Shown: positions 4,555-20,183 of the stretch, piece after piece
How positions within the stretch are numbered: position 1 is the stretch's first letter
How the letters are laid out: each line of letters begins with the position of its first letter
NCBI GenBank assembly: GCA_036509075.1
Contig: DATCGG010000530.1
Span: forward strand, 19,325-43,324
DNA: 24,000 nt
Source of the DNA: Gemmatimonadaceae bacterium
Lineage (GTDB): Bacteria; Gemmatimonadota; Gemmatimonadetes; Gemmatimonadales; Gemmatimonadaceae
Direction of reading: 5' to 3'
Notes under the pieces: model-generated
Database searches by the model: none
What the model was told of the DNA's origin: nothing
The model's input: only the letters and a program-made list of their open reading frames with translations
Position numbers and translations under genes: made by a program

Positions 4555-5790
4555 TTACACGAGCCTCTTCGTCGTAGCGAGGCAGCGCTCGATGTCATCC
4601 ACGTTGTTGAACAGCGCGGGTGAGACGCGAACCGTTCCGTCACGAACCGTTACCTCGATATTGGCGGACTGAAACGCCGCCCGAACGTCGCTCGGTTGCT
4701 TCGCGGTATAGAACGTCACGATCGACGAGCGGTTTCCGTGAGGCGTGAACAGCCGGTGCCCCTGTTTCTCCAGCCCGTCCTGAAGCCGCCGGGCGAGGTT
4801 GTCCACCGTGTGCGCCTCGATGCGATTGACACCGACTTTCTCGAGATAGGAGAGCCCGGCGCTGAGGGTGTACACGTCGCCGAACGAACGACTCGAGTAG
4901 TCGAACCGCTTCGCGTTCGTCGCGATCTCGTAGCTGTGATCCGGCAACTCCTTGCCAGCATGCATCTCACCGAAGCGATCGAGCCGAAGGCGATCGGCGA
5001 TCGCCGTGCGAACATACAGGGGAGCCACGCCCCAACCAGCGAGAAGCCATTTGTAGGAACCGGCGCACAGGACGTCGACTCCGGCGGCAACGACGTCGAT
5101 CGGAAACATGCCCACCGCTTGAATCGCGTCGGTGTAGAACAGTGCGCCCTTCGCATGGGCGACGTCGGCGATCGGCCGCATGTCGTGCCGGAGCCCGTTC
5201 TGATGCGAGACCCACGCGACGGACACGAGCCGCGTGCGCGTGTCGACGAGCGGCTCGAAATCGCTCGCGTCGACGAGGCCGTTGCGGTGCTTCGCGATGC
5301 GAAGCTCGACACCGTTCAGCTTTTCGAGCTGGCGATACAGCACGAACTCCGTGTTGTAGTGCAGCTCGTCGATGACGACATTGTCGCCCGCCTTGAGCCC
5401 CAGTCCGGCCGCGACGACGTTCTCGCCCTCAGCGGTAGAGAACAGAAGTCCGATCTCATCGGGGGACGCCGCGCCGATCAGCCGGGCGAACTGCACGCGC
5501 ACCTCGTCGCATTTCTTGAGCAGCGGCCCGAGTTGGAACGAGCGCCTCGCCTTCTCCTCGAGGAACGCGTGGCCAGCGCTCACCACCTGCATTGGGATCG
5601 GCGCGATGTACGCGGAGTTCAGGAAGGTTCGCTCGTTGACAATGGGAAAATCACCTCGGACTCCGAGCGGGTCGTCGCCGAACGCGACGCGTTCCGGTGG
5701 CATCGCGACCGTCGCCGATGGGCGTACCACCGACGCCGCCGCCATCGAAGCGGCCGCGGCGACAAACGAACGTCGATCCAATGGCGTCAT
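4555..5790 (-). CDS. class V aminotransferase-fold PLP-dependent enzyme with twin-arginine (Tat) signal
   Basis: From the ATG at 5790: MTPLDRRSFVAAAASMAAASVVRP, an RR plus hydrophobic Tat-type leader. The body resembles cysteine desulfurase/epimerase-like class V enzymes (DAIQAVG, GSYKWLLAGWG with candidate PLP lysine). The ORF-track extension to 5982 was rejected. Confidence 0.75.
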   Translation of the reverse strand: MTPLDRRSFVAAAASMAAASVVRPSATVAMPPERVAFGDDPLGVRGDFPIVNERTFLNSAYIAPIPMQVVSAGHAFLEEKARRSFQLGPLLKKCDEVRVQFARLIGAASPDEIGLLFSTAEGENVVAAGLGLKAGDNVVIDELHYNTEFVLYRQLEKLNGVELRIAKHRNGLVDASDFEPLVDTRTRLVSVAWVSHQNGLRHDMRPIADVAHAKGALFYTDAIQAVGMFPIDVVAAGVDVLCAGSYKWLLAGWGVAPLYVRTAIADRLRLDRFGEMHAGKELPDHSYEIATNAKRFDYSSRSFGDVYTLSAGLSYLEKVGVNRIEAHTVDNLARRLQDGLEKQGHRLFTPHGNRSSIVTFYTAKQPSDVRAAFQSANIEVTVRDGTVRVSPALFNNVDDIERCLATTKRLV

Positions 5791-6832: not shown

Positions 6833-7452
6833 ACGAAGAAGATCTGGTCAGGCTCTATCAACGAGGCGCCACACGTCGCGAGGCAACACGCGACGGCTGC
6901 GTGCCCCCGGAGGCGCTGCTCGATGTGGTAGAACGCCGAGGCCCCGAGGCGACGCGACTCCAGAGCGTCAATCACGCGATGGCCTGCGCCGATTGCCGCG
7001 AGGAGCTCGAGCTGCTGCGCGCCACACGCATCGTGCGCGATCGTGCGCGCCTGCCGCGCTTCGGATTCGCCCTCGCGGCATCTCTCGTCTTGGCGGCCGG
7101 CTTGGGGTTCTACGCCTTCGGTCGGCAGCGCGCACCAACCGGCTTGGGCGATGCCGGCGGCGTGACGCGCAGCGGGTCCGACGACGTCCAGCTCGTAACC
7201 ACCGGTGCGGTATCCACCCAGGCGCCGAACCTCGTCTGGCGATCCGCCACCGGCGCCGCGAGCTACGTCGTCGAGCTGCGCCGTGAGGATGGAACGCTGC
7301 TCGCCCGCGGCACGACGGCGGACACCGTGTTCGCGGTCCCGGACAGCGTGCGCGCGGGACCGGACTCGGACGCCTACTGGGCCGTGACCGCCCGGCTCTC
7401 CGATGGCACCTCACTCTCGTCGACCGCCCGGCGCATTCGCCTAACGCCATAG
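6829..7452 (+). CDS. anti-sigma factor, ZAS-type (C-x24-H-x3-C-x2-C), single-pass membrane protein
   Basis: The start overlaps the sigma gene stop (ATGA, 6829-6832). Cys24 (6898-6900) and H49-AMA-C53-AD-C56 (6973-6996) fit the zinc anti-sigma motif. One TM helix (FGFALAASLVLAAGLGFYAF) is followed by a ~100-aa extracytoplasmic domain. Confidence 0.7.
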   Translation: MNEEDLVRLYQRGATRREATRDGCVPPEALLDVVERRGPEATRLQSVNHAMACADCREELELLRATRIVRDRARLPRFGFALAASLVLAAGLGFYAFGRQRAPTGLGDAGGVTRSGSDDVQLVTTGAVSTQAPNLVWRSATGAASYVVELRREDGTLLARGTTADTVFAVPDSVRAGPDSDAYWAVTARLSDGTSLSSTARRIRLTP

Positions 7453-10319
7453 AGCAGGCCGCCTGCCACCGCCAGTCCGAGCACGATTGCGATCCATAGC
7501 CATCGGTTTGCTGGCGCGGTCAGCGGAACAGTGACGAGCGGATCACCCACGACGGCGAACGCTGCCCAAGTGGCTGGTGGGCTTCCGCGGCGGATCGCGG
7601 CGAGCTTCGCGGTGCGGGCTGCGTCGGCGACTGCCTGCCCGGCCGCAAGCGCGCGATAGAAATCATCGATGAACTGAACGGCATCGGTGTCGCGGATTCG
7701 CCATTGCGTCGCCAGCACCGAACGCGCGCCCGCCGCCAGCAGCGGCGCCGTGAGTCCCTGCACGCCTTCCCCGCGCACCGCGACGCCTCGGGCTGTGCGA
7801 CACGCGGACAGCACCACGAGTCCCGCGTCGAGCCGAAGCGCCGAGAGCTCTCCGGGGCCGACGAAGCCGTCGTCGCCCTCGCCGGCCGCGACCGCGAGAG
7901 CCGTACGTGCCACCGAACGCTCGTCCACCAGCGCATGCGTCGCGAGATGGACGATCGCGAACGAATCGAGTGTGGCGTGCTTGAGATAGCTCTCGCTCGC
8001 TCGCTCTCGCAGACGCAGCTCCGACTGGTGGCCGAACCGGGCCACGAGTTTGGCTTCATCAGCCGATGCGCGAAGCCGTGGGAGCCCTCCGTTCATCGAG
8101 AATGCGTCGCGATAGACGTCGGCGGCGGAGCCGCCGTTAGGCGCGATCTCGTTCGCGAACCGCGGATCGCCGAATGCGAGAATCCGCGGCGCGCCACGAT
8201 CTCGACGCGGGCGGCCGTGGAGGTCGGCCACGACCGCCGCGGAGGGCGCCAGGCTCAGCGCGAATCGATCGATCAGGTATCGACCGTCGCGAATCCGAAC
8301 CGCGTCGAATGGCAGGTGCTGAAGCGGGCCGTCGCCGATGATCACCAGCCGAGAAACATCCGCAGGCAGACTCTCGAGCGCAGAGCCGAACACGGCGTCG
8401 CCCAGCCGACGGGCGAGTGTGTCTGCGCGCGCCCCCGCCTCTATCATCGCAGAGAAGGCCTGGATGTCGGCGGCGATCGAATCAGCGGGCGGTCGGCTCA
8501 GCGCGGACGTGCCTTTCGACGAGAGCACGAACAGCGTGGTGGGCTCGCCTCGCAAGCCAGTAACGAACTCGAGCACGGCCGTACGTTGGTCCGGCACCGT
8601 GGGCACGACGAACCCGGTGACCCGCTCGCGCGTTAGGCCGTTGCCACTGCGGGCGAGATGGTCCAGCAGTTCGCGGGCTCGGCGTCGCTCCACCAGCGCC
8701 AACGCGCCGTCGACGCGGCCACCGGCGACGAGCCCCGCGATGATCGACGCGAAGCCCACCTCGGTCTCGTCGTAGCCTTTGTGCGCCTGGAACGCGAGCA
8801 CCCTGAGCTCGCGATCGTTGAGCGCCGCGCGCAGGGAATCCATCGCGTTCGTGGCGTCGATCAGCTCACGCTCGGCACGCGCCACGTCGCCCTGGGCAAC
8901 GTGGATCTGCGCGATGCGCGAGCGCGCCGCATACCGATCGAGGTCGGTTACGCCGCTGGTCGAGGCGAGCATGGCTCGAAAGCGACGCTCCGCCTCGACG
9001 AGATTGCCCTCGTGGAGTGCGACGACGCCGTACTCGTACTCGAGTTGCGGAACGTACGCCATCAACCCATGGGCCCGCGCCACCGTCTCGGCCTCGCCGA
9101 AATGCGTGCGTGCAGCCGTCCAGTCGCCACGGCTCATGGCGACGCGTGCCAGCCCGAATGAGGCGGAGTGCTGCTCCAGCGGTAGCTGAAGGCGCTGAGC
9201 CCGCGCGAGGTCGTCGCGATACGCCGCTTCGGCCGCATCGACCTGGCCCGCATCGAGCGCGATCGCGCCGTCGACGTAGCGCACGTAGGCCAGCCCCCAC
9301 CCATCGCCTTGCCGCAGCATCATCGTGCGCCCGCGCTCGAGCTCTCGGCGAGCCGACAGCATATCACCGAAGTGCCAGCTCACCACGGCGAGGCGCAGCC
9401 ACGCCCATGCCGCGATGAACTCGTTGCCCGACGCTCCGGCCTCGACGAGCACCGCCGAGAGATCGCGTCGGGCTGCATCGTGGTCGTAGAGATCGAGCTC
9501 CGCGGTGCCGCGCCACCACAGTGCGAGCGCGACACCCCGTCGATCGTGCACGCGCTGGGCGGCGGCGACGGCGGTGTCGAGCAACGCAGCAGATCGCGCA
9601 TGATCGCCAGCCCCCATGTAGAACGCGCCCAGCATCGCGAGGCAGAACGATTCACGTCGTAGGTCGCCGGCCTGACGCGCCAACGCGAGCCCGCGAAGCG
9701 CTTCCTGGCCCGCCTGCATGTTCCCTTGAAGGGCCAGCACGGCGGCTCTCGAACACCTCCCCTGCGCCACGAGAGCGGGGTCGCGCCGCGGCGCGAGCCC
9801 GAGCCCACTGTCGACGATCGGCAGCGCGACCGCCGCCGACTCGCGCCGAAGCCGGGAGATCGTGAGCCCGAACAGCGCCTGGGCCACGGCCACCGAGTCG
9901 TTGGCCGAGCGAGCTGCTTTGGCAGCCGTCACGAACCAGGCGGACGCGGAATCGAGCGGCGCATGATAGAGTCGAGATTCCGCGCGGCCTAACGCGGCCC
10001 AGGCAGCGTACGACGACCCGGGAGCCGTTGCGGCCGCGACCCTCGCGTACAGTCGATCGGCGCTGGCATCCTCGTACGTCAGTCGCGTGATCGTCGCAAC
10101 CCCGAGCAAGGCGCCGAGATCCGACGAATCACGAGCGAGCGACGCGCGCCATCGCGCGAGGGCCGGGCCCGCGCTGTCGACTTCGACGGCGTGCGTCGCC
10201 TGTCGAACGACGTCGGCGGGACGGTCGGTCGCGACCACAGCCTGCAGGACCAGGACAGCGGGAAGCGCGAGGTGCACGCCGCCGAACTCCGGCAAGGAGA
10301 GAGCACAGTCGGCCGGCAT
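7374..10319 (-). CDS. TPR-repeat / CHAT-domain (caspase-like) protein with C-terminal membrane anchor
   Basis: 981 aa. The N-terminal ~600 aa are TPR-like A/L/R-rich repeats. The C-terminal CHAT signature has a His (HLATHALVD; His codon 7935-7937) and a Cys (VVLSACRTARG; Cys codon 7800-7802). An N-terminal hydrophobic stretch (VHLALPAVLVLQAVVA) may be a signal peptide. A C-terminal TM helix (WLWIAIVLGLAVAGGLLYGV) is followed by a basic tail. Confidence 0.85.
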   Translation of the reverse strand: MPADCALSLPEFGGVHLALPAVLVLQAVVATDRPADVVRQATHAVEVDSAGPALARWRASLARDSSDLGALLGVATITRLTYEDASADRLYARVAAATAPGSSYAAWAALGRAESRLYHAPLDSASAWFVTAAKAARSANDSVAVAQALFGLTISRLRRESAAVALPIVDSGLGLAPRRDPALVAQGRCSRAAVLALQGNMQAGQEALRGLALARQAGDLRRESFCLAMLGAFYMGAGDHARSAALLDTAVAAAQRVHDRRGVALALWWRGTAELDLYDHDAARRDLSAVLVEAGASGNEFIAAWAWLRLAVVSWHFGDMLSARRELERGRTMMLRQGDGWGLAYVRYVDGAIALDAGQVDAAEAAYRDDLARAQRLQLPLEQHSASFGLARVAMSRGDWTAARTHFGEAETVARAHGLMAYVPQLEYEYGVVALHEGNLVEAERRFRAMLASTSGVTDLDRYAARSRIAQIHVAQGDVARAERELIDATNAMDSLRAALNDRELRVLAFQAHKGYDETEVGFASIIAGLVAGGRVDGALALVERRRARELLDHLARSGNGLTRERVTGFVVPTVPDQRTAVLEFVTGLRGEPTTLFVLSSKGTSALSRPPADSIAADIQAFSAMIEAGARADTLARRLGDAVFGSALESLPADVSRLVIIGDGPLQHLPFDAVRIRDGRYLIDRFALSLAPSAAVVADLHGRPRRDRGAPRILAFGDPRFANEIAPNGGSAADVYRDAFSMNGGLPRLRASADEAKLVARFGHQSELRLRERASESYLKHATLDSFAIVHLATHALVDERSVARTALAVAAGEGDDGFVGPGELSALRLDAGLVVLSACRTARGVAVRGEGVQGLTAPLLAAGARSVLATQWRIRDTDAVQFIDDFYRALAAGQAVADAARTAKLAAIRRGSPPATWAAFAVVGDPLVTVPLTAPANRWLWIAIVLGLAVAGGLLYGVRRMRRAVDESEVPSESRAVTAQ
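7439..7446 (-). repeat. dispersed 8-mer CGTTAGGC (GCCTAACG on + strand)
   Basis: Exact match inside the anti-sigma/CHAT overlap. It is in frame in both genes (R-L-T and G-V-R). Confidence 0.9.
8135..8142 (+). repeat. dispersed 8-mer CGTTAGGC
   Basis: Exact match in the CHAT CDS. The sense strand reads CCT AAC (P-N). Confidence 0.9.
8631..8638 (+). repeat. dispersed 8-mer CGTTAGGC
   Basis: Exact match in the CHAT CDS. The sense strand reads CTA ACG (L-T). Confidence 0.9.
9987..9994 (-). repeat. dispersed 8-mer CGTTAGGC (GCCTAACG on + strand)
   Basis: Exact match in the CHAT CDS. The sense strand reads TTA GGC (L-G, with the rare TTA codon). Confidence 0.9.
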
Positions 10320-10458
10320 CGGCCGCAGGAGGGACGACGACCGCCTTTGGAGACAGCGTACTGAGCGTTACGGGACGCGTCAAGCAGATATCGCGAAACC
10401 CCACGAGAACAAAATCGAAATTGCGGCATCATCTGGATGACTGCGTCCGTGTCTTCCA

Positions 10459-12264: not shown

Positions 12265-12400
12265 TCTGAATCTCCGGGGGACGTTGAAAGACGCGGTCCG
12301 TACGCAAAGAGGGGTGGCTGGGTTACAACCCGTTACGCAAGGCCGATCCGGCCGCGGGCGGGTTGCTCATTAGATGCGCGGATCCCGCAGATGGTTGGTA
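12106..12400 (-). repeat. tandem segmental duplication, copy 2
   Basis: See copy 1. In this copy the upstream part is also the 3' end of the DUF418 gene. Confidence 0.7.
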
Positions 12401-13506
12401 GCTCCATCGCAGCGGCTCCAATCTCGCATACGTCGCCATGCGCCAGAGCCACTCGAGCGGTCCATAGCGGAACCGAGCGAGCCAAAGGTTGCTGAACAGC
12501 ACAATCACGGTGGCGAACACGAGCCAGGCGCCGACATACGTGGCCTCGTGCAGCTTGATGCCGAGCGGCTTCGCGAGATACCAGATGGTCACGGCCTGCA
12601 GGACGTAGTTCGTGAACGCCATGCGGCCGGCCGCACCGATGGGGCGCATTCGCTCCAGGAGCGCGGGGCGCTTCGCGAGAAGCAACAGTGCCCCGCCGGC
12701 GTACGTGAAGCAGAGCCACTGATCCTTCACGAGACCAGCGAGCGTCCGTTCTGCCCAGAAGGCGCCCATGAGGTATTGGGGCGGGCGAGGAACATGGTAG
12801 AGCACGAGCCACGACACCGCCCAGGCCGCGAGTCCGAAGAGCATCCAGCGACGTATGAGCCGCTCGTGTCGCAGCGGCTCATCGACCACGCCGACGCGAA
12901 CGGCGAGGAAACCCAGGAGGAGAAGTGGAAGGCTCTCGTCCGGGACGAGCCACCACCACGCCTTGAGCAGCGGAAACGTCCTGTGTGTGAAGTGGGTGAG
13001 AAGGCCCATCACGGCGTTCAAGACGGGCGGGAACATGGCGCTGACTACCACCGTCCATTGAAGTGTGCGTGTCGACCACCGACGCATGGCGAGGAGGACC
13101 ACGCCGCATACCGCATACATCGTGAGGATATGGAAGCCGATGAGGCGCTCGACGACCCAGCCGATCACGAACAGCGTCGTCAGGCGGCGCAGGAGGATCG
13201 GCACGACGGGCGCGCTGCGCGCCTCGAGCCGACGAAGCAGTAGCGCGACTCCGGCGCCGAACAGCAGCGCAAACGTCCCCCATGCCTTCTCCTCGACACC
13301 GACCCACACGGCCCACCCGATCAGACCCTGCCAGCCCGTGCTCTCCAATCGCATGAGCTGGTGAAAGTGAACGAGGACCATGAAGACGAGCGCGAGACCG
13401 CGGATCACGTCCAGCGAGTGCAGACGCTCCTCCGTCTCAACCGGCGCCGCGCGGGGTGACGGGCGGTGGGACGCGATCGGCGACGAAACGCGTGCAGTGG
13501 CGAGCA
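12323..13506 (-). CDS. DUF418/YeiB-like polytopic membrane protein
   Basis: From the ATG at 13506: ...ERLHSLDVIRGLALVFMVLVHF..., many TM helices, and the C-terminal hallmark GPLEWLWR. A ~25-aa tail follows the usual family end. The ORF-track start at 13915 overlaps the kinase gene and was rejected. Confidence 0.75.
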
Positions 13507-13507
13507 T

Positions 13508-13514: not shown

Positions 13515-13677
13515 CGGGCGAGGTGTGGAAGTCCATCCTGATCGCCCATCCCATTAGCAACCGCGACGCCGTCTTGCGCAGTGAGCACATCTCGCTGACC
13601 CGCATGCACTTGGCGCTGACGCTGAGCGCCGCGGGCGCAGGCGACGCGTAACGAGTCGATACGGCGCGGGCTCCGTT

Positions 13678-15399
13678 TCAGGTCGCACGCGGTATGGTGA
13701 CGGTCGCCGTCGTGCCGGTTCCGAGCGCGCTTTCGAGTGAGAGCTCGCCGCCGTGCCCGGCCGCAATGCGGCGCGCGATCGCGAGGCCGAGGCCCGTGCC
13801 TTCCGCGCGTGTGGTGACGAACGGCTCGAAGGCGGCGGCGAGCGTCTCCGGTGACATGCCGCGTCCAGTGTCCCGCACCTCGATGCGCGCGTGGTTCGTG
13901 TCCGCCCGGGCGCACACGCGAACCACTCCGCCCGGCACATCGAAGGCCTGCGCCGCGTTGAGCAGCAGGTTGAGGAAGAGCTGCTCGAGCGCCGCCGCGT
14001 CGCCTAACACGACGAGCGGCACATCGCCCGTGTCGACTTCCACGCGCGCGCCAGCAGACTGCAGCTCCGGTTCGCTCGCGTGGAGGGCCGCGTCGAGCGG
14101 GACGAGCAGGTCCACTGGGGTGCGCGCGACGCGCCCGCTGCGAGCGACGCGGAGCGCGCCGCTCACGGTGTGCTGTATCCGGTCGACGGCGCGCAGGGCG
14201 CGCCGAAGCGGCGCGCGGAGCGGTGACTCGACTTCGAGCTTCTCCTCCACGCGCTGAAGGTCGATGCGCATCGCCGTGAGCGGATTGCGCACCTCGTGCG
14301 AGAGTGACGCCGCGAACTCGCCAACCGCTGCCAACGACTCGCGCCGCGCGAGCGAGTCGAGCGTGCGACGGAGACTTTCCGACATGGTGTTGAACGCCTC
14401 GGCGAGTCGTCCGAGCTCCTCACTCTCCTGCACCGGGACCGTCCGGCCCATCTCGCCGCGCGCCACGCCATCGGCCGCGAGCGCGAGGTCGCCCAGGGCG
14501 CGCGTTAGGCGCCGAGTGAGCACGATGGCAGCGAGCGTGCTGAGCGCCGCCACGACGAGCAACGCTACCAGCCCGCGCCGCGCCGCGTCGGCAAAGGGCG
14601 CCTCGTAGTCCGCCACGGGCGCCGCGGCGACGATCTCGATCGCGGGGTCGTTCAACGTGCGCCGCGCAACCAACCAGCGCTCGCCGTTCCAGTTGAAGGT
14701 CGGCTTGCTTGCGAGATCCGGGTCGAACGGCGTGGCGAGCAGAGGCAGGCCGGTGCGGCGATCGAAGGCGGCCAGCGTGGTGCCGCCGGTCGCTCCCGTG
14801 GCTCGGACGATCGCCGATCCCGGGACTGCAGCCTCGAGACTGCCGATCGCACGCTCGGCATGCTGCGACCACAGGGTGAGGACCGGACGGAAGACTCCCC
14901 CGCTCGTAGCCGTATCGCCAGCGTGGGTCCAGCGGACCGCACCGGCGGCATCACGAACAACGGCAAAGCGCACCGCCGTCGGGAGGATCGCCGGTGCGGA
15001 CACCGCACCCACAGTGTCTCCGATCGCGCGACGCACCTCGATCGTTTCCGCGAGGTCGAGCAATGCCGAGCGTTGCTCCACCCATCGGAGTCCGGCCTCG
15101 TTGGCCGCCGACAACACCGCGGCATCGAGCCGCGCCGTAAGCAGTGCTTCGCCCGCGCGTCCGCTCGCACGCGCGAGCCAGAGCGCGAGCAACGCCAGCG
15201 GCACGATCGCAGCCGCGAGCACGACGAGAATGAGCTGCGTGCGCAGCGAGGGGCGAGGCGACCGGGCTGCGCTCGACGACGAGCCGGGCTGCGCCCCGGA
15301 GACTCTCGCGAGCGACGCCGCCGGCACGTCCGGCACGGCTTGCGGTGACAGCTGCGACGACGTCTCGCGCGCCGGTCGAGCCACGGTCGTGTCAGCCAT
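13678..15399 (-). CDS. sensor histidine kinase (periplasmic sensor, HAMP, HisKA, HATPase_c)
   Basis: Two TM segments flank a ~260-aa periplasmic domain, followed by a HAMP region. Motifs: H-box SLSHEVRNPLTAM, N-box LFLNLLLNAAQA, G1 DTGRGM, G2 GTGLGLAIARRI. The ATG at 15399 overlaps the activator gene stop (ATGGCTGA). Confidence 0.85.
   Translation of the reverse strand: MADTTVARPARETSSQLSPQAVPDVPAASLARVSGAQPGSSSSAARSPRPSLRTQLILVVLAAAIVPLALLALWLARASGRAGEALLTARLDAAVLSAANEAGLRWVEQRSALLDLAETIEVRRAIGDTVGAVSAPAILPTAVRFAVVRDAAGAVRWTHAGDTATSGGVFRPVLTLWSQHAERAIGSLEAAVPGSAIVRATGATGGTTLAAFDRRTGLPLLATPFDPDLASKPTFNWNGERWLVARRTLNDPAIEIVAAAPVADYEAPFADAARRGLVALLVVAALSTLAAIVLTRRLTRALGDLALAADGVARGEMGRTVPVQESEELGRLAEAFNTMSESLRRTLDSLARRESLAAVGEFAASLSHEVRNPLTAMRIDLQRVEEKLEVESPLRAPLRRALRAVDRIQHTVSGALRVARSGRVARTPVDLLVPLDAALHASEPELQSAGARVEVDTGDVPLVVLGDAAALEQLFLNLLLNAAQAFDVPGGVVRVCARADTNHARIEVRDTGRGMSPETLAAAFEPFVTTRAEGTGLGLAIARRIAAGHGGELSLESALGTGTTATVTIPRAT
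14002..14008 (-). repeat. dispersed motif, 7-mer core (GCCTAAC on + strand, 3' flank A)
   Basis: Core match in the kinase CDS. The sense strand reads GTG TTA GGC GAC (V-L-G-D). Confidence 0.8.
14503..14510 (+). repeat. dispersed 8-mer CGTTAGGC
   Basis: Exact match in the kinase HAMP region. The sense strand reads CTA ACG (L-T). Confidence 0.9.
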
Positions 15400-16735
15400 C
15401 GGAGCCGATATCGTGCCGGGCGAGAATGCGGTCGAGCCGAGGACGCGAGATGCCGAGGATTTGTGCCGCGCGTGCCTTGTGCCCGCGCGTAGCGGCGAGC
15501 ACCCGAAGCACATGTTCGCGCTCGACGTCGTCGAGCGTGCCGAGCTTCGCCGGCCCCTCCGGCGCCGCGCCACCGAGCACCAGGTGTTCGGCGCGGATGA
15601 CGTCGCCGCTCGCCACGACGACGGCGCGCGTTAGGCAGTTCTCCAGCTCGCGCACATTGCCCGGCCACGCGTGCCGCGCGAGCCCGGCGAGCGCGTCGGG
15701 CGCGAGCACCGGCTCGGGCCGTCCCACGGCTGCGGCGGCGCGGCGAACGAGCGTCGCCGCGAGTAACGGGAGGTCGCCCGCGCGCTCTCGGAGCGGCGGC
15801 ACGACGATCTCGACGACACGCAGCCGATAGTACAGGTCCGCGCGGAATTGCCCTGCCGCGACCATCGCCTCGAGGTCCCGGTGTGTCGCGGCGATCACCC
15901 GCGCCTCGGTGCGTTCGGGTCGGTCCGCGCCCACGGGGTAGAACTGCCGTTCCTGCAGCACGCGCAGGAGCTTCGTCTGAAAGTCGGCCGACGTGTCTCC
16001 GATCTCGTCGAGGAAGATCGCGCCACGTCCGGCGAGCGCGAACTTGCCACGGCGATCGCCCTGGGCGCCCGTGAAGGCGCCGCGGACATGGCCGAAGAGC
16101 TCACTCTCGAGCAGCGTCGCGGGCACGGCGGTGCAGTTGATCGGCACGAACGGCTCGACCGCCTCGCGCGAGTGGTCGTGGATGGCTTGCGCGATCAGCT
16201 CCTTGCCGGTACCGCTCTCGCCGCGAATGAGGACGTTCGCACGAGTCGCGGCCACCTGACCCACGAGCTTGTAGATCTCGATCATGCGCGGGTCGCGCCC
16301 CACGAGGTCCGCGAGCCGCTGTGGCGTTTCCTCCTCGTCGCGGCGACCGCGGGCAGCGCGCTGACGCGCCCGTCGATCGTCGATCACGCGTGCGACTCGC
16401 GTCCGCAGCTCGTGGAGATCGAGCGGCTTTACGAGGAAGTCGGTCGCGCCTTCCCGCATCGCCGCCACCACCGTCGGCATGTCGTCGAATGCGGTCATGA
16501 GCAGCACGGGAATGTCGGGAGCGCGTTCGCGGAGCAGCGCAAGCAACGCCAGCCCGTCCATCCCCGGCATGCGCACATCGGAGAGCACGACATCCGGTGC
16601 GCGCTCGGCGAGCAGGGCCACCGCGCGCGCGCCGTCGCCGGCCGAACGCACGTCATACCCCGCCTCGGCGAGCGCCTCGACGAGCGCTTCGCGCACGACC
16701 GTATCGTCGTCGACGACGAGCAGAGATCCGCTCAT
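15392..16735 (-). CDS. sigma-54-dependent response regulator (NtrC family bacterial enhancer-binding protein)
   Basis: REC domain (LLVVDDD ... LSDVRMPGMDG), AAA+ Walker A GESGTGKE, sigma-54 contact loop GAFTGA, ...NVRELEN..., and a C-terminal Fis-type HTH (GHKARAAQILGISRPRLDRIL). The start at ATG 16735 gives 447 aa. Confidence 0.9.
   Translation of the reverse strand: MSGSLLVVDDDTVVREALVEALAEAGYDVRSAGDGARAVALLAERAPDVVLSDVRMPGMDGLALLALLRERAPDIPVLLMTAFDDMPTVVAAMREGATDFLVKPLDLHELRTRVARVIDDRRARQRAARGRRDEEETPQRLADLVGRDPRMIEIYKLVGQVAATRANVLIRGESGTGKELIAQAIHDHSREAVEPFVPINCTAVPATLLESELFGHVRGAFTGAQGDRRGKFALAGRGAIFLDEIGDTSADFQTKLLRVLQERQFYPVGADRPERTEARVIAATHRDLEAMVAAGQFRADLYYRLRVVEIVVPPLRERAGDLPLLAATLVRRAAAAVGRPEPVLAPDALAGLARHAWPGNVRELENCLTRAVVVASGDVIRAEHLVLGGAAPEGPAKLGTLDDVEREHVLRVLAATRGHKARAAQILGISRPRLDRILARHDIGSDG
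15629..15636 (+). repeat. dispersed 8-mer CGTTAGGC
   Basis: Exact match in the activator CDS. The sense strand reads TGC CTA ACG (C-L-T). Confidence 0.9.
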
Positions 16736-16745
16736 CTGATCGGGA

Positions 16746-18629
16746 TCACGGTACGACCGCCCGCGCATGCGTCGAGTCCCAGCCGGCGAGCTCCCACAGC
16801 TCGTTGGCCGCGTGCCCTGCAGTGAAGTAGATGCGGCGCCCGTCGGGATGCACGGCGATCGGCGTGAAGTTGCCGGTCATTCCGAACCGCAGCGTGCGGG
16901 TCGCGCCGTCCGCGAGCGACACTCGGTCGACGCGCACCGAGGAGCGCCCCGGGGTGCCGAGCACCGCGTCGGCCTGGTTCGCCCGCACCACGTAGATGTA
17001 GCGTCCGTCGGCGGCCCAGTTGATCGTAAAGAGCTGGTCCGGCATACGCACGCGCAGTAGCTCGCGCACGGAGTTGCCCGCGAGGTCGCTCACGCGGAGT
17101 GCCGACCCCTGGCGGTCCTCCGTGGGCACCACCTGCGCGAGCAGCCGGCCATCTGGCGACATCTCGCCGCTAATGTCCTGGGGTCGCGCGTGCGGCCAGC
17201 TCGCAAGGACACGAGTGGCGCCAGTCGCCACGTCGGCTGCCACCGTCCGCACCGTGCTGTCGTCATCGTACCGGCGGTAGACGACTTCCTTACCGTTAGG
17301 CGTCCAGCCGAGGTTCCACGGCACGGTCCACAAATGAGCGGTCGTGTCGCCGGCGAACACCTGTCGGGCCTCACCCGTCGTGACGTCGACGACGAACACT
17401 CCCGCGCGGCGATTGGCGTCTTCGCCGCGCGTGAAAACGCGCGTGCCATCCGGCGACCAATGCTGCCGGCCGTAGATCCGTGACAGCGTCGTTCTTACCT
17501 TATGTGTCTCGCCGGTGAGGAGCGAGCGGAACGTGAGGGTCGGCTGGGCCCACTGGTCCTTGTCGCGATCGGGCACGTTGTGCACCAACCACTCCCCGTT
17601 CCGCGAGATGCCGAGCGCCGAGAGCGCGCGCGTGACATCGCGGTCGTCCATCCGTACCGGCTCACCGACGACCGCGCCCGTCGCGGTGTCGATCGTCGCC
17701 TGGTACAGATACCTGGCGCCGGTGCGCACCGTGTAGAGGAGACGCCCGTCGTTCGTCGCGCCGACGCCGGACACGTTCCATGTATCCGGCTTCAGGAGCC
17801 GCGCCTCACCGTCGGCGCGGCCATCGCGCACCGGTTGCAACCAGAAGCCCGGGGTGCCAGCGCGATCGCTGCTCAGAACAATGGCACGCCCGTCCGGCGC
17901 CCACCCGTTAGGCGTATCGTCGCTCGGCCACGTCACGAGGGGCCAGGTCCGCCCGGTCGCGATCTCGAGGATGCGCGCGTCGCGGGGTCCAACGCTCGGA
18001 TGCTCCGCGCTCCCGTTGTACGCGGCATAGCGACCGTCGGGCGAGAAGAGCACATCGCCCAACACCCACGTCACGTTCTTGAAGAGGAATCGGATGCCGC
18101 CGCCATCGAGGTCCAGCCAGCCGTAATCGAACCGCCCATTCGTTCGGTCGAGCTCCAGGATCACATGTCGGCCGTCCGGCGAGAAGCCGTTGACCTCCAT
18201 GTAGTAGTAGGCGGAGTCCTGGAACACGACGCGCGGATTGTGGCCGTCCGCGTCGACGACGCGGATCGAGTAGCGCTCGTCGTCGTCAGACCAGGAGAGC
18301 GCGATCCGGCGCCCGTCCGGCGACATCCTCGAGGTCTCGACGTACGCCTCCGACCCCCAACTGGCCTTGAGGCCGATTGGTCGAAGCGCGCCGGTCGCGA
18401 GGTCCCGCACGGCGAGATCCCCGGTGGACACGTCGATCGTGCTGAGGAATCGCCCGTCGGCGGTTGGGTAGCCGTAGTCGTTGAACTGCGCCTCGGAGAG
18501 AAGCCGACGCGCAACGACCCCGACTTGGCCGCGCAGCGCAGCCTTTTCAATGGCGGCGAGACGCTGGGGGTCGGGGCGAGTGCCGCACGCGGCGACGAGG
18601 GCGAGCGCTGAGAGGGCGAGGCGGCGCAT
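16746..18629 (-). CDS. TolB-like / PD40 beta-propeller repeat lipoprotein
   Basis: Repeated [FWM]SPDGR blades are present (MSPDGRRIAL, FSPDGRHVIL, FSPDGRYAAY, WAPDGRAIVL, WSPDGTRVF, MSPDGRLLA, HPDGRRIYF). From the ATG at 18629: MRRLALSALALVAAC lipoprotein signal. Only 10 bp separate its stop from the activator gene start. Confidence 0.8.
   Translation of the reverse strand: MRRLALSALALVAACGTRPDPQRLAAIEKAALRGQVGVVARRLLSEAQFNDYGYPTADGRFLSTIDVSTGDLAVRDLATGALRPIGLKASWGSEAYVETSRMSPDGRRIALSWSDDDERYSIRVVDADGHNPRVVFQDSAYYYMEVNGFSPDGRHVILELDRTNGRFDYGWLDLDGGGIRFLFKNVTWVLGDVLFSPDGRYAAYNGSAEHPSVGPRDARILEIATGRTWPLVTWPSDDTPNGWAPDGRAIVLSSDRAGTPGFWLQPVRDGRADGEARLLKPDTWNVSGVGATNDGRLLYTVRTGARYLYQATIDTATGAVVGEPVRMDDRDVTRALSALGISRNGEWLVHNVPDRDKDQWAQPTLTFRSLLTGETHKVRTTLSRIYGRQHWSPDGTRVFTRGEDANRRAGVFVVDVTTGEARQVFAGDTTAHLWTVPWNLGWTPNGKEVVYRRYDDDSTVRTVAADVATGATRVLASWPHARPQDISGEMSPDGRLLAQVVPTEDRQGSALRVSDLAGNSVRELLRVRMPDQLFTINWAADGRYIYVVRANQADAVLGTPGRSSVRVDRVSLADGATRTLRFGMTGNFTPIAVHPDGRRIYFTAGHAANELWELAGWDSTHARAVVP
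17294..17301 (+). repeat. dispersed 8-mer CGTTAGGC
   Basis: Exact match in the TolB-like CDS. The sense strand reads CCT AAC (P-N). Confidence 0.9.
17906..17913 (+). repeat. dispersed 8-mer CGTTAGGC
   Basis: Exact match in the TolB-like CDS. The sense strand reads CCT AAC (P-N). Confidence 0.9.
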
Positions 18630-18660
18630 GTGTGTGCCGGTCTGGGTGCCCCTGCCTGAG

Positions 18661-18675
18661 GCAAAGGGAGCACCA
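18661..18675 (-). promoter_or_regulatory. candidate sigma-54 (-24/-12) promoter A
   Basis: The minus strand reads TGGTGCtccctTTGC. GG and GC sit at the exact spacing of the TGGCAC-N5-TTGC consensus. The -12 GC is 32 nt upstream of the TolB-like ATG. It has the same variant form as promoter B. Confidence 0.55.
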
Positions 18676-18752
18676 GCAAGGCAATACGACCCAATCGTCG
18701 GGCGCGCAAGGGCTTGGATAGTCCTTACCAGTCCGCGCAGCGCGCCCATCGA

Positions 18753-18790
18753 GTAACGAGACGTTACGAGCATTCGTCGAAAGCGTTACG
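18753..18790 (-). promoter_or_regulatory. candidate enhancer (UAS) array A for the NtrC-type activator
   Basis: The + strand reads GTAACG-aga-CGTTACGA-N13-GCGTTACG. This is a perfect 6-bp inverted repeat plus a third half-site, with CGTTAC units 22 bp apart. It lies 78 bp upstream of promoter A and overlaps the stop codon of the 118-aa ORF. Confidence 0.5.
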
Positions 18791-19142
18791 TCCGACAGTA
18801 GCCGAAGCAAAGCGTTGGTGCTTGCTGGCTGCCGATCGGATACGTGAGGTCAGGCTGGTGCCAGCTCTCCTGACGCTGGCAGGTGGTGCTCGCGGAGTCC
18901 GGTGGCGCGAAGACAAGGTACGCGACGTCACGCAGGTCGACCGTGTCGCCGCGCTGTACGACGACCCCTTCGGACCACCGGACGTGCGCGAGAGTGATGC
19001 GCCCGACGGTGGTGGCGCCGTCGCGCCAGCGGAGGCGGACCTCCCACTGTCGCCACCCACCTTGTGTGAGGCTCGCCTCTGCGACTCCGGCGCAAAGCGC
19101 CGCGCTCATGAGCGAGGCCGATATCAGGTTAGTCATGCGCAT
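18786..19142 (-). CDS. small exported protein, 118 aa, unknown function
   Basis: From the ATG at 19142: MRMTNLISASLMSAALCAGVAEA signal peptide. GAGGG lies ~10 nt upstream and GC3 is high. The C-terminus is ...LCFGYCRT. The part of the ORF-track entry upstream of 19142 has lower GC3 and was rejected. Confidence 0.5.
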   Translation of the reverse strand: MRMTNLISASLMSAALCAGVAEASLTQGGWRQWEVRLRWRDGATTVGRITLAHVRWSEGVVVQRGDTVDLRDVAYLVFAPPDSASTTCQRQESWHQPDLTYPIGSQQAPTLCFGYCRT

Positions 19143-19147
19143 GGTCT

Positions 19148-19366
19148 CTAGCCCTCGGCCTTCATGGCCGACATCTGGGACACACCACCACGCGCCGAGC
19201 TCGATGTGATAGTTGCCCCGTCGGGCGTCGCGGTTTGGTCGATGGCGTGGCCGGCCACGGTAGTTAGGCACGCCACCGTGCACAGCAACGTGATTGCAGC
19301 GCACGGGCGCCTGCTGTGCCGCGTGGGCATATCTGTGCGCGACGAGCGCGATTGTATCGTTATCAT
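19148..19366 (-). CDS. candidate small exported peptide, 72 aa
   Basis: MITIQSRSSRTDMPTRHSRRPCAAITLLCTVACLTTVAGHAID... has a basic n-region and a hydrophobic core. GC3 by hand count is ~77 percent, higher than the overlapping frame. GAGGA lies 10 nt upstream. The stop is 5 nt before the next ATG. Confidence 0.4.
   Translation of the reverse strand: MITIQSRSSRTDMPTRHSRRPCAAITLLCTVACLTTVAGHAIDQTATPDGATITSSSARGGVSQMSAMKAEG
19263..19269 (+). repeat. dispersed motif, 7-mer core GTTAGGC (5' flank A)
   Basis: Core match inside the candidate 72-aa ORF (TGC CTA ACT, C-L-T). Confidence 0.8.
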
Positions 19367-19468
19367 GGTGAAAAATTCCTCGGGTCTGGTCAGGCACTCG
19401 TTAGGTCATCGTTGTGGCGCTGAACGCCGTCGCCCGTCGCCCGTCCCCGGCCGTCGTTCGATAGTTGC

Positions 19469-19476
19469 CGTTAGGC
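19469..19476 (+). repeat. dispersed 8-mer CGTTAGGC
   Basis: Exact match in the intergenic region between the small exported protein genes. Confidence 0.9.
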
Positions 19477-19523
19477 GGGATCGCGGGTACCAACGTCCAG
19501 GAGGTGCCGTTCAGGTTTGCGCT

Positions 19524-19985
19524 TCACGAGCAGAACGGCACGCCGGTGAACACCCACAGCCACCAGCAGCTGCTCCCGCTCCCGTCCGTCGGCCGCCACG
19601 CCGGCGGGGCGCTCGCCTTCTCGATGACGCGCGTGGCGGAGGACACCTTTTCCCCGGGCGCCGCGTACACAGGGCGCGCGATGCCGCCTGGCATCGGGTA
19701 TGGGCTGATGCGTCCCGCGAGGACGCTCACGTCTTCGGGGGCACCGGCCTCGTCGTCGAACACGCCGAGCAAAAGGGCCAAGCGCAGCCGCTCGAGAATC
19801 CGTGCGCCACTGGCGCTCGCTCGCGTGATGTCTCGCTTATCCTCGATCGACGCGGCGCGAACTTGTGCCTGGCGGAGCCGCGTGACGCCGGCGGTCGCGC
19901 GGCTCGTCGCGCCGCCGCCCTGCTGTTGGGCGGTAAGAGTGAATGCTGGGAAGGCTATAACAGCAAGGAGGAGACGCGCGCGCAT
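19524..19985 (-). CDS. small exported protein, 153 aa, unknown function
   Basis: From the ATG at 19985: MRARLLLAVIAFPAFTLTAQQQ signal peptide. GC3 is high. The C-terminal tail GSGSSCWWLWVFTGVPFCS is aromatic and hydrophobic and is bracketed by Cys. Confidence 0.55.
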   Translation of the reverse strand: MRARLLLAVIAFPAFTLTAQQQGGGATSRATAGVTRLRQAQVRAASIEDKRDITRASASGARILERLRLALLLGVFDDEAGAPEDVSVLAGRISPYPMPGGIARPVYAAPGEKVSSATRVIEKASAPPAWRPTDGSGSSCWWLWVFTGVPFCS

Positions 19986-20054
19986 GGTTTCCGTCCTGTC
20001 GATTGTGGTGGCGCGTCGCGACGGAGACGCCGTCGGCGCGCACGCCACGCTCAG

Positions 20055-20069
20055 GCAAGGCCGGCACCA
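20055..20069 (-). promoter_or_regulatory. candidate sigma-54 (-24/-12) promoter B
   Basis: The minus strand reads TGGTGCcggccTTGC, with the same GG-N10-GC geometry and the same deviations as promoter A. It lies 70 nt upstream of the ATG at 19985. Confidence 0.55.
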
Positions 20070-20082
20070 ACAGGCGGAAATA

Positions 20083-20090
20083 GCCTAACG
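20083..20090 (-). repeat. dispersed 8-mer CGTTAGGC (GCCTAACG on + strand)
   Basis: Exact match in the intergenic region between UAS array B and promoter B. Confidence 0.9.
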
Positions 20091-20145
20091 CACGACGTTG
20101 CATGCGCTTGCGCGCGGAGCCGTCGCGCGGCGCTCACACGACACC

Positions 20146-20183
20146 GTAATGGCGCGTTACGAACTGCGTCACGAGGCGTTACG
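20146..20183 (-). promoter_or_regulatory. candidate enhancer (UAS) array B
   Basis: The + strand reads GTAATG-gcg-CGTTACGA-N13-GCGTTACG, the same architecture and spacing as array A. It lies 77 bp upstream of promoter B. Confidence 0.5.

Follow-up and report, generated by a model that had tools for sequence, protein, structure and literature searches.

The sequence considered here is a window of 24,000 nucleotides (positions 19,325 to 43,324 of contig DATCGG010000530.1), whose source lineage is the uncultured Gemmatimonadaceae of soil or rhizosphere metagenomes. It carries a sensor locus, all of whose genes and regulatory features lie on the minus strand. Read in the direction of transcription, the genes are three small open reading frames (ORFs; sp1, sp2 and sp3), a PD40/TolB-like beta-propeller lipoprotein, an NtrC-family response regulator, a sensor histidine kinase and a DUF418/HGSNAT-like integral membrane protein. 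Three regulatory units of a common design precede real genes in the correct orientation, namely unit B (upstream of sp1-sp3), unit A (upstream of the lipoprotein, regulator and kinase genes) and unit C (upstream of the DUF418 gene). Each comprises one or two operators centred at about -110 and -132, a mid element at about -67 to -57, and a (T)GGYGY-N5-TTGC promoter of the sigma-54 type. Units A and B had been noticed in an earlier reading of the same DNA, which we refer to as the original prediction.

Promoters A and B are the only matches to TGGYRC-N5-TTGC on either strand of the 24 kb (0.25 expected), a count of two being attained by 4 of 100 shuffled sequences. Both lie exactly where they had been placed originally, A at 32 nt (counted from the C of the -12 element) before the ATG at 18629 and B at 70 nt before the ATG at 19985, to which a conserved leader extends, and both have the invariant GG and GC at exact spacing together with the same deviant hexamer, TGGTGC. 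With promoter C, 50 nt before the ATG at 13507, the GG and GC are found at the exact 10-bp gap of the sigma-54 consensus (TGGCAC-N5-TTGCW) in all three, and this placement is conserved in about 30 loci. The comparison set consisted of 48 loci aligned on the PD40 protein, including a deeply diverged group (L004 and L042-L046) besides the main one; GG and TTGC are retained at exact spacing in every one of the 49 distinct units. A simple scan of the regulatory regions gave no sigma-70-like promoter, and Rfam no match between 13300 and 20500 at E <= 1. Terminators were not found between the units, the few terminator-like matches on the minus strand being located within sp1 and sp3, so that transcripts from promoter B could continue into unit A.

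The arrays upstream of A and B resolve, by repeat finding and by palindrome searching, into copies of a 15-bp inverted repeat, GTAACG-N3-CGTTAC. With up to two mismatches this operator occurs six times in the window, against 0.62 expected. The longer array pattern CGTAACGC-N13-TCGTAACG-N3-CRTTAC is matched only at 18790-18753 and 20183-20146, even at three mismatches, and has no matches in shuffles. Array A combines a perfect palindrome, the proximal one, with a half-site distal to it; in array B there are two palindromes of one mismatch each. The palindrome centres, at approximately -110 and -132, are 21-22 bp apart, which is the layout of an enhancer (upstream activating sequence), where inverted repeats, commonly two or more in helical phase, stand some 80-150 bp ahead of the promoter. 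The distances of 78 and 77 bp between array and promoter and the 22-bp periodicity reported in the original prediction are correct, as are its coordinates, although the arrays are better described as GTAACG-N3-CGTTAC palindromes. The CAG(G/T)TAG block that it noted beside them is indeed present in both window arrays but is not conserved among orthologues.

A third unit (C; 13662-13557), built like A and B, was missed by the original prediction. Its operator lies 16 nt past the stop codon of the kinase gene, and its promoter, cGGCGT-cgcgg-TTGC, keeps the GG and GC at exact spacing. This promoter is kept in L001, L002, L020, L022, L023, L026, L027, L028 and L038. In the divergent group it takes the form GGGCAG-N5-TTGC (L004, L042, L044 and L045) and is preceded by two operators 21 bp apart; the gene which follows in L004 is 46% identical to the DUF418 protein of the window. 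On sequence grounds promoter C is probably weaker than A and B and more dependent on the activator, since it lacks the T of TGG and, in the main group, has a single operator.

Table. Genes and regulatory elements of the sensor locus (positions are those of the window; elements are written on the minus strand)
Feature	Position	Strand	Sequence	Remarks
Unit B distal palindrome	20168..20182	(-)	GTAACGcctCGTGAC	1 mismatch; centre ~-132
Unit B proximal palindrome	20146..20160	(-)	GTAACGcgcCATTAC	1 mismatch; ends 76 nt before TGG; centre ~-110
Unit B mid element	20100..20110	(-)	CAAGCGCATGC	~-67 to -57
Promoter B	20055..20069	(-)	TGGTGC-cggcc-TTGC (TGGTGCcggccTTGC; tTGGTGCcggccTTGCc)	sigma-54 type; predicted start ~20043
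sp1	19524..19985	(-)		153-aa secreted protein, orphan family, signal peptide
sp2	19148..19366	(-)		72-aa small ORF, little conserved
sp3	18786..19142	(-)		118-aa secreted protein, internal-deletion variant
Unit A distal half-site	18784..18790	(-)	CGTAACG	22 bp upstream of proximal site
Unit A proximal operator	18753..18767	(-)	GTAACGtctCGTTAC	perfect palindrome; ends 77 nt before TGG
Unit A mid element	18706..18716	(-)	CAAGCCCTTGC	
Promoter A	18661..18675	(-)	TGGTGC-tccct-TTGC (TGGTGCtccctTTGC; cTGGTGCtccctTTGCc)	sigma-54 type; predicted start ~18649
PD40/TolB-like beta-propeller lipoprotein	16746..18629	(-)		627 aa; lipobox LVAAC; Pfam PD40
NtrC-family response regulator / enhancer-binding protein	15392..16768	(-)		458 aa; REC, AAA+ with GAFTGA, HTH_8
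Sensor histidine kinase	13678..15399	(-)		periplasmic domain, then HAMP, HisKA, HATPase_c
Unit C operator palindrome	13648..13662	(-)	GTATCGactCGTTAC	1 mismatch; ends 76 nt before -24
Unit C mid element	13602..13612	(-)	CAAGTGCATGC	41 nt before -24
Promoter C	13557..13571	(-)	cGGCGT-cgcgg-TTGC (cGGCGTcgcggTTGC)	weaker sigma-54 type; predicted start ~13545
DUF418 / HGSNAT-like integral membrane protein	12323..13507	(-)		394 aa; from Pfam and translation

Comparative evidence for these units is strong. A composite was defined as a palindrome with at most one mismatch followed, after 74-79 nt, by nGG-N8-TTGC. The window contains three, against a mean of 0.01 in first-order Markov simulations, and the orthologous loci contain 54 in 213 kb, with a gap of 76 nt in 29, 77 nt in 23 and 75 nt in two; control loci, unrelated but obtained in the same search, contain none in 175 kb. 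In all orthologous loci (PD40 protein identity 78-100%) 46-47 nt separate the unit A promoter from the ATG, and CGTAAC sites stand some 115, 93 and 82 nt upstream of the TGG. Unit B is kept in L001, L002, L003, L020, L022, L024, L027 (twice), L032, L035, L037, L040 and L041, and its proximal palindrome in L001, L002, L022, L024, L027, L032, L035 and L041. Members of the divergent group, in which the PD40 protein is 43% and the kinase 56% identical, have the same arrangement with a TGGCGC-N5-TTGC promoter. Mean pairwise identity, calculated over 18 regions for unit A and 10 for unit B, is high within the discrete blocks: 1.00 and 0.91 respectively for the distal site, 0.96 and 0.86 for the proximal palindrome, 0.96 and 0.94 for the mid element, and 0.95 and 0.91 for the promoter. 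By comparison, the spacers score 0.63-0.65 in unit A and 0.70-0.75 in unit B.

The mid element, an 11-bp CAAS-N3-WTGC motif, begins in A, B and C exactly 41 nt ahead of the -24 hexamer (counted to its first base), and its placement is shared by every unit type. Among the 49 distinct units its positions rank with the most informative, and an additional TTG near -45 is also conserved. The original prediction's statement that conservation is lacking between array and promoter must accordingly be withdrawn. Sites for integration host factor (IHF) usually sit midway between enhancer and promoter, and the position of the mid element fits such a site; in this respect the units resemble the IHF-assisted sigma-54 promoters of nifH, Pu and glnHp2. 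The match to an IHF site does not go beyond the core CAA-N4-TTR, present in three of the five unit types (unit A and the divergent-group units), and units B and C read CAAG-NGC-ATG. The locus units differ from the IHF-assisted promoters in that the full consensus, WATCAANNNNTTR, is not conserved in them. Read as a -35 hexamer, the mid element works weakly, and in unit A only, and this reading was therefore rejected.

A candidate for the protein acting at these units is encoded beside them. As the original prediction had it, operon A specifies an NtrC-family activator with an intact GAFTGA loop (ELFGHVRGAFTGA), in the gene following that for the PD40 lipoprotein. Pfam identifies Response_reg (1.6e-32), Sigma54_activat (2.1e-66), AAA_lid_14 and HTH_8 domains, and the phospho-acceptor lies in the context SDVRMPGMDG. 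Among solved structures the nearest are 4l4u and 1ny5, both NtrC-family chains, and LuxO. The protein scores below every NCBIfam equivalog cut-off (ntrC 441/558.6, AtoC 422.5/714, PEP_resp_reg 364.6/502.6 and ZraR 351.8/760; GlrR was likewise under its cut-off) and thus represents an unnamed subfamily. An exact look-up of the window regulator in the contig collection returned no match, probably owing to a differing gene-call start. No other protein of the locus is conserved as well as this regulator (identity 94-96% for the main group, 77-78% for the divergent one). In its helix-turn-helix (HTH) region, TRGHKARAAQ[IL]LG[IV]SRPRLDR[IL]LA, the only changes between the groups are I/L and I/V swaps. 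This near-invariance is matched by the unchanged operator, an indirect but coherent indication that the locus regulator may be the protein which reads GTAACG-N3-CGTTAC. As to the sigma factor, supplementary file 1 of PMC3162934 includes a sigma-54 for Gemmatimonas aurantiaca T-27 (YP_002761129.1).

We consider it probable (approximately 0.78), from the sequence comparisons described above, that the locus is a self-contained, positively autoregulated sigma-54 regulon of the classic NtrC type with three promoter units. Transcription of sp1-sp3 would start from unit B, that of the genes for the PD40 lipoprotein, regulator and kinase from unit A, and that of the DUF418 membrane protein gene from unit C. 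The kinase, perhaps aided by the periplasmic PD40 lipoprotein, would phosphorylate the regulator, whose dimers would bind the operators via HTH_8 and then build the AAA+ ring. The intervening DNA would loop, probably with the help of a bending protein at the mid element (~-62), and the GAFTGA loops would remodel the closed complex of the sigma-54 holoenzyme in an ATP-driven reaction. Since unit A would drive both regulator and kinase, the circuit is predicted to be positively autoregulated. The enhancer-binding-protein layout proposed originally is supported by the domains and GAFTGA loop of the activator, by the composite counts and by the conservation of the units in register in the orthologues, including those whose PD40 protein is only 43% identical; each of its predictions at the sequence level that could be checked was borne out. 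Autoregulation, with co-regulation of the small exported proteins, likewise stands as the best inference, but a third promoter, that of the DUF418 gene, has to be added to the scheme.

Several observations weigh against this interpretation. The -24 hexamers (TGGTGC for both A and B, cGGCGT for C) depart from the TGGCAC consensus, and the main-group form of unit C has one operator only. The complete identity of the unit A distal site among the 18 regions is confounded by the coding sequence of sp3: the TAA stop codon of that gene falls within the CGTAACG (…TGT CGG ACG TAA CGC), so the conservation of the site is partly coding-driven. The sole ties between the operator and the locus regulator are co-location and co-conservation. 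In addition, many of the loci are fairly close kin, and some of the intergenic conservation, such as that of the leaders (0.78-0.82), may stem from limited divergence or from other functions.

There is some room, which we judge to be small, for promoters that depend upon sigma-54 while their palindromes are bound by a different protein, be it another enhancer-binding protein with its gene elsewhere, a repressor or a co-regulator; the locus regulator would then not activate them directly. Several enhancer-binding proteins are given for Gemmatimonas aurantiaca (PMC3162934 supplement), and similar half-sites are used by an unrelated enhancer-binding protein, GcsR of Pseudomonas aeruginosa, whose operator is TGTAACG-N4-CGTTCCG (PMC4894688). 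However, the units flank the regulator operon on both sides in every locus examined, and operator and HTH have stayed constant together on both sides of the deep division between main and divergent group. Moreover, autoregulation by an operon-encoded regulator is the usual arrangement in NtrC-family systems. It is less probable still that the blocks are promoters for a housekeeping or extracytoplasmic function (ECF) sigma factor, or conventional operators, in which the GG-N10-GC is coincidental. Such a reading could draw on the non-consensus -24 hexamers and on unit A, where TTGCGC-N17-TATTGC, which extends over the mid element and the block ahead of the -24, can be taken for a weak -35/-10 pair; this pair fails in units B and C and in the divergent group, the sigma-70 scan was empty, the GG, GC and TTGC hold their spacing without exception in the distinct units, and an activator with a GAFTGA loop is encoded alongside.

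A duplication of regulatory DNA would also have given A and B their shared architecture, and the likeness might then be a leftover, or the product of chance, with no present function. We regard this as highly improbable: the conserved sequence forms discrete blocks between drifting spacers, it persists in three types of unit and in two deeply diverged groups, and about 0.01 composites per window are expected by chance. Within the NtrC-type regulon which we favour there is a more speculative elaboration. The mid element, rigid in its placement, may bind a dedicated architectural or co-regulatory protein, and the locus may be a closed envelope-signalling circuit in which the kinase receives feedback from sp1, sp3 and the PD40 lipoprotein, a case of autoinduction by secreted proteins in Gemmatimonadota; we consider this unlikely.

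Among characterized systems the closest relatives are NtrC (NR-I) at glnAp2, AtoC, ZraR and the Aquifex proteins NtrC1 and NtrC4, which have the same series of REC, AAA+ (GAFTGA) and Fis-type HTH domains. NtrC-type systems also have paired inverted-repeat enhancers some 100-140 bp upstream of a -24/-12 promoter, and a cognate kinase within the operon together with autoregulation, as is predicted here. NtrC and AtoC are the best NCBIfam matches of the locus regulator, though both fall under the cut-off. The NtrC site is TGCACC-N5-GGTGCA, from which the locus operator GTAACG-N3-CGTTAC differs. The predicted targets also differ, being envelope and secreted proteins rather than the nitrogen and acetoacetate genes of NtrC and AtoC, and the operator-promoter spacing of 75-77 nt is unusually rigid. 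The closest published operator that we found is that of GcsR, present in tandem copies upstream of a sigma-54 promoter (PMC4894688). Its arms are nearly identical to those of the locus operator, but they are separated by 4 nt rather than 3, and GcsR is a TyrR-like enhancer-binding protein (PMC4894688) and not of the response-regulator type; the taxon and the targets (the glycine cleavage system) are likewise unrelated. The TyrR consensus is TGTAAA-N6-TTTACA, and the arms of the GcsR operator are 7 bp long and 4 nt apart (PMC4894688); the spacer between GTAACG and CGTTAC in the locus is invariably 3 nt, and the operators are not of the GcsR/TyrR type.

The papers searched contain no description of the locus regulon, nor of IHF in the Gemmatimonadota. 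The mechanism itself is textbook and no new principle is involved; the value of the analysis lies in annotation and in a defined experimental handle. For an uncharacterised two-component system of the NtrC family it yields an operator and three target promoters, built to a fixed plan that includes a candidate bending site. The Gemmatimonadaceae are an abundant soil lineage, largely uncultured, the regulation of which has been almost unstudied experimentally. All predicted targets are exported or membrane proteins, which fits the proposal that sigma-54 chiefly governs the cell exterior (PMC3162934).

With regard to the individual genes, sp1, sp2 and sp3 are real: tblastn finds them in most of the related loci at 35-70% identity (sp1 in 15 loci), and their third-position GC is 0.78-0.82 (sp1, 0.82). 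Signal peptides are present on sp1 and sp3. Neither Pfam nor NCBIfam gave a match for any of the three. The sp1 family has 23 members, no Pfam domain, an invariant SPYPMP and a C-terminal CWWLWVFTGxPxC; the latter, with its two cysteines, might be a disulfide-bonded or sorting-type C-terminus. The sp3 family, also without a Pfam domain, has about 100 members, usually of 180-200 aa, with the invariant motif QGGWRQW. The AlphaFold models were unusable for a fold search (pLDDT 48 for sp1 and 44 for a full-length sp3 homologue). In L002 (2356-3360) and L027 (4214-5266) the slot of sp2 is occupied by a classical PD40 (WSPDG repeat) lipoprotein of 334-350 aa, and the content of the unit B operon is thus variable.

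The PD40 lipoprotein of operon A scores under the TolB equivalog cut-off in NCBIfam. Longer calls of its gene (the mechanical ORF at 16746-18773, 675 aa, and some database calls of 667-680 aa) span promoter A. A start at ATG 18629 is supported by the length of most orthologues (~630 aa) and by the lipobox. The kinase probably starts with MADTT..., overlapping the 3' end of the regulator gene.

A few further features of the regulatory DNA may be recorded. Directly upstream of the -24 of unit A is an invariant block of 20 nt, ATTGrGTCGTATTGCCTTGC (18676-18695, minus strand; identity 0.93), for which there is no equally strong counterpart in units B or C and no separate score in unit B. The predicted leader of unit B (19986-20043, minus strand; 58 nt, identity 0.82) can fold into a long GC-rich hairpin. 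As a structured element this was rejected, its stability being no better than that of shuffled sequence (z = -0.42) and Rfam giving no match. In L027 an extra B-type unit (1231-1357) is found about 2.3 kb upstream of the normal unit B, before other genes, among them a putative ORF of 218 aa containing an internal signal sequence of lipoprotein type; in certain genomes, therefore, the regulon can extend further.

The remaining sites that resemble CGTAACG or the palindrome were attributed to chance, none having a GG-N10-GC promoter at the unit distance. The sequence GTCACGaacCGTTAC (4639-4653) resembles the palindrome and lies within an aminotransferase gene; it is probably fortuitous. The same probably holds for GTTACAaccCGTTAC (12322-12336; two mismatches), at the end of the DUF418 gene, which is found only in the near-identical L020 and L022. 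A lone CGTAACG half-site at 10366 is not accompanied by a sigma-54 promoter. It stands 47 nt before the ATG of a gene (7374-10319, minus strand) for a protein of 981 aa that combines TPR repeats with a caspase-like CHAT domain, an architecture typical of prokaryotic conflict or signalling systems.

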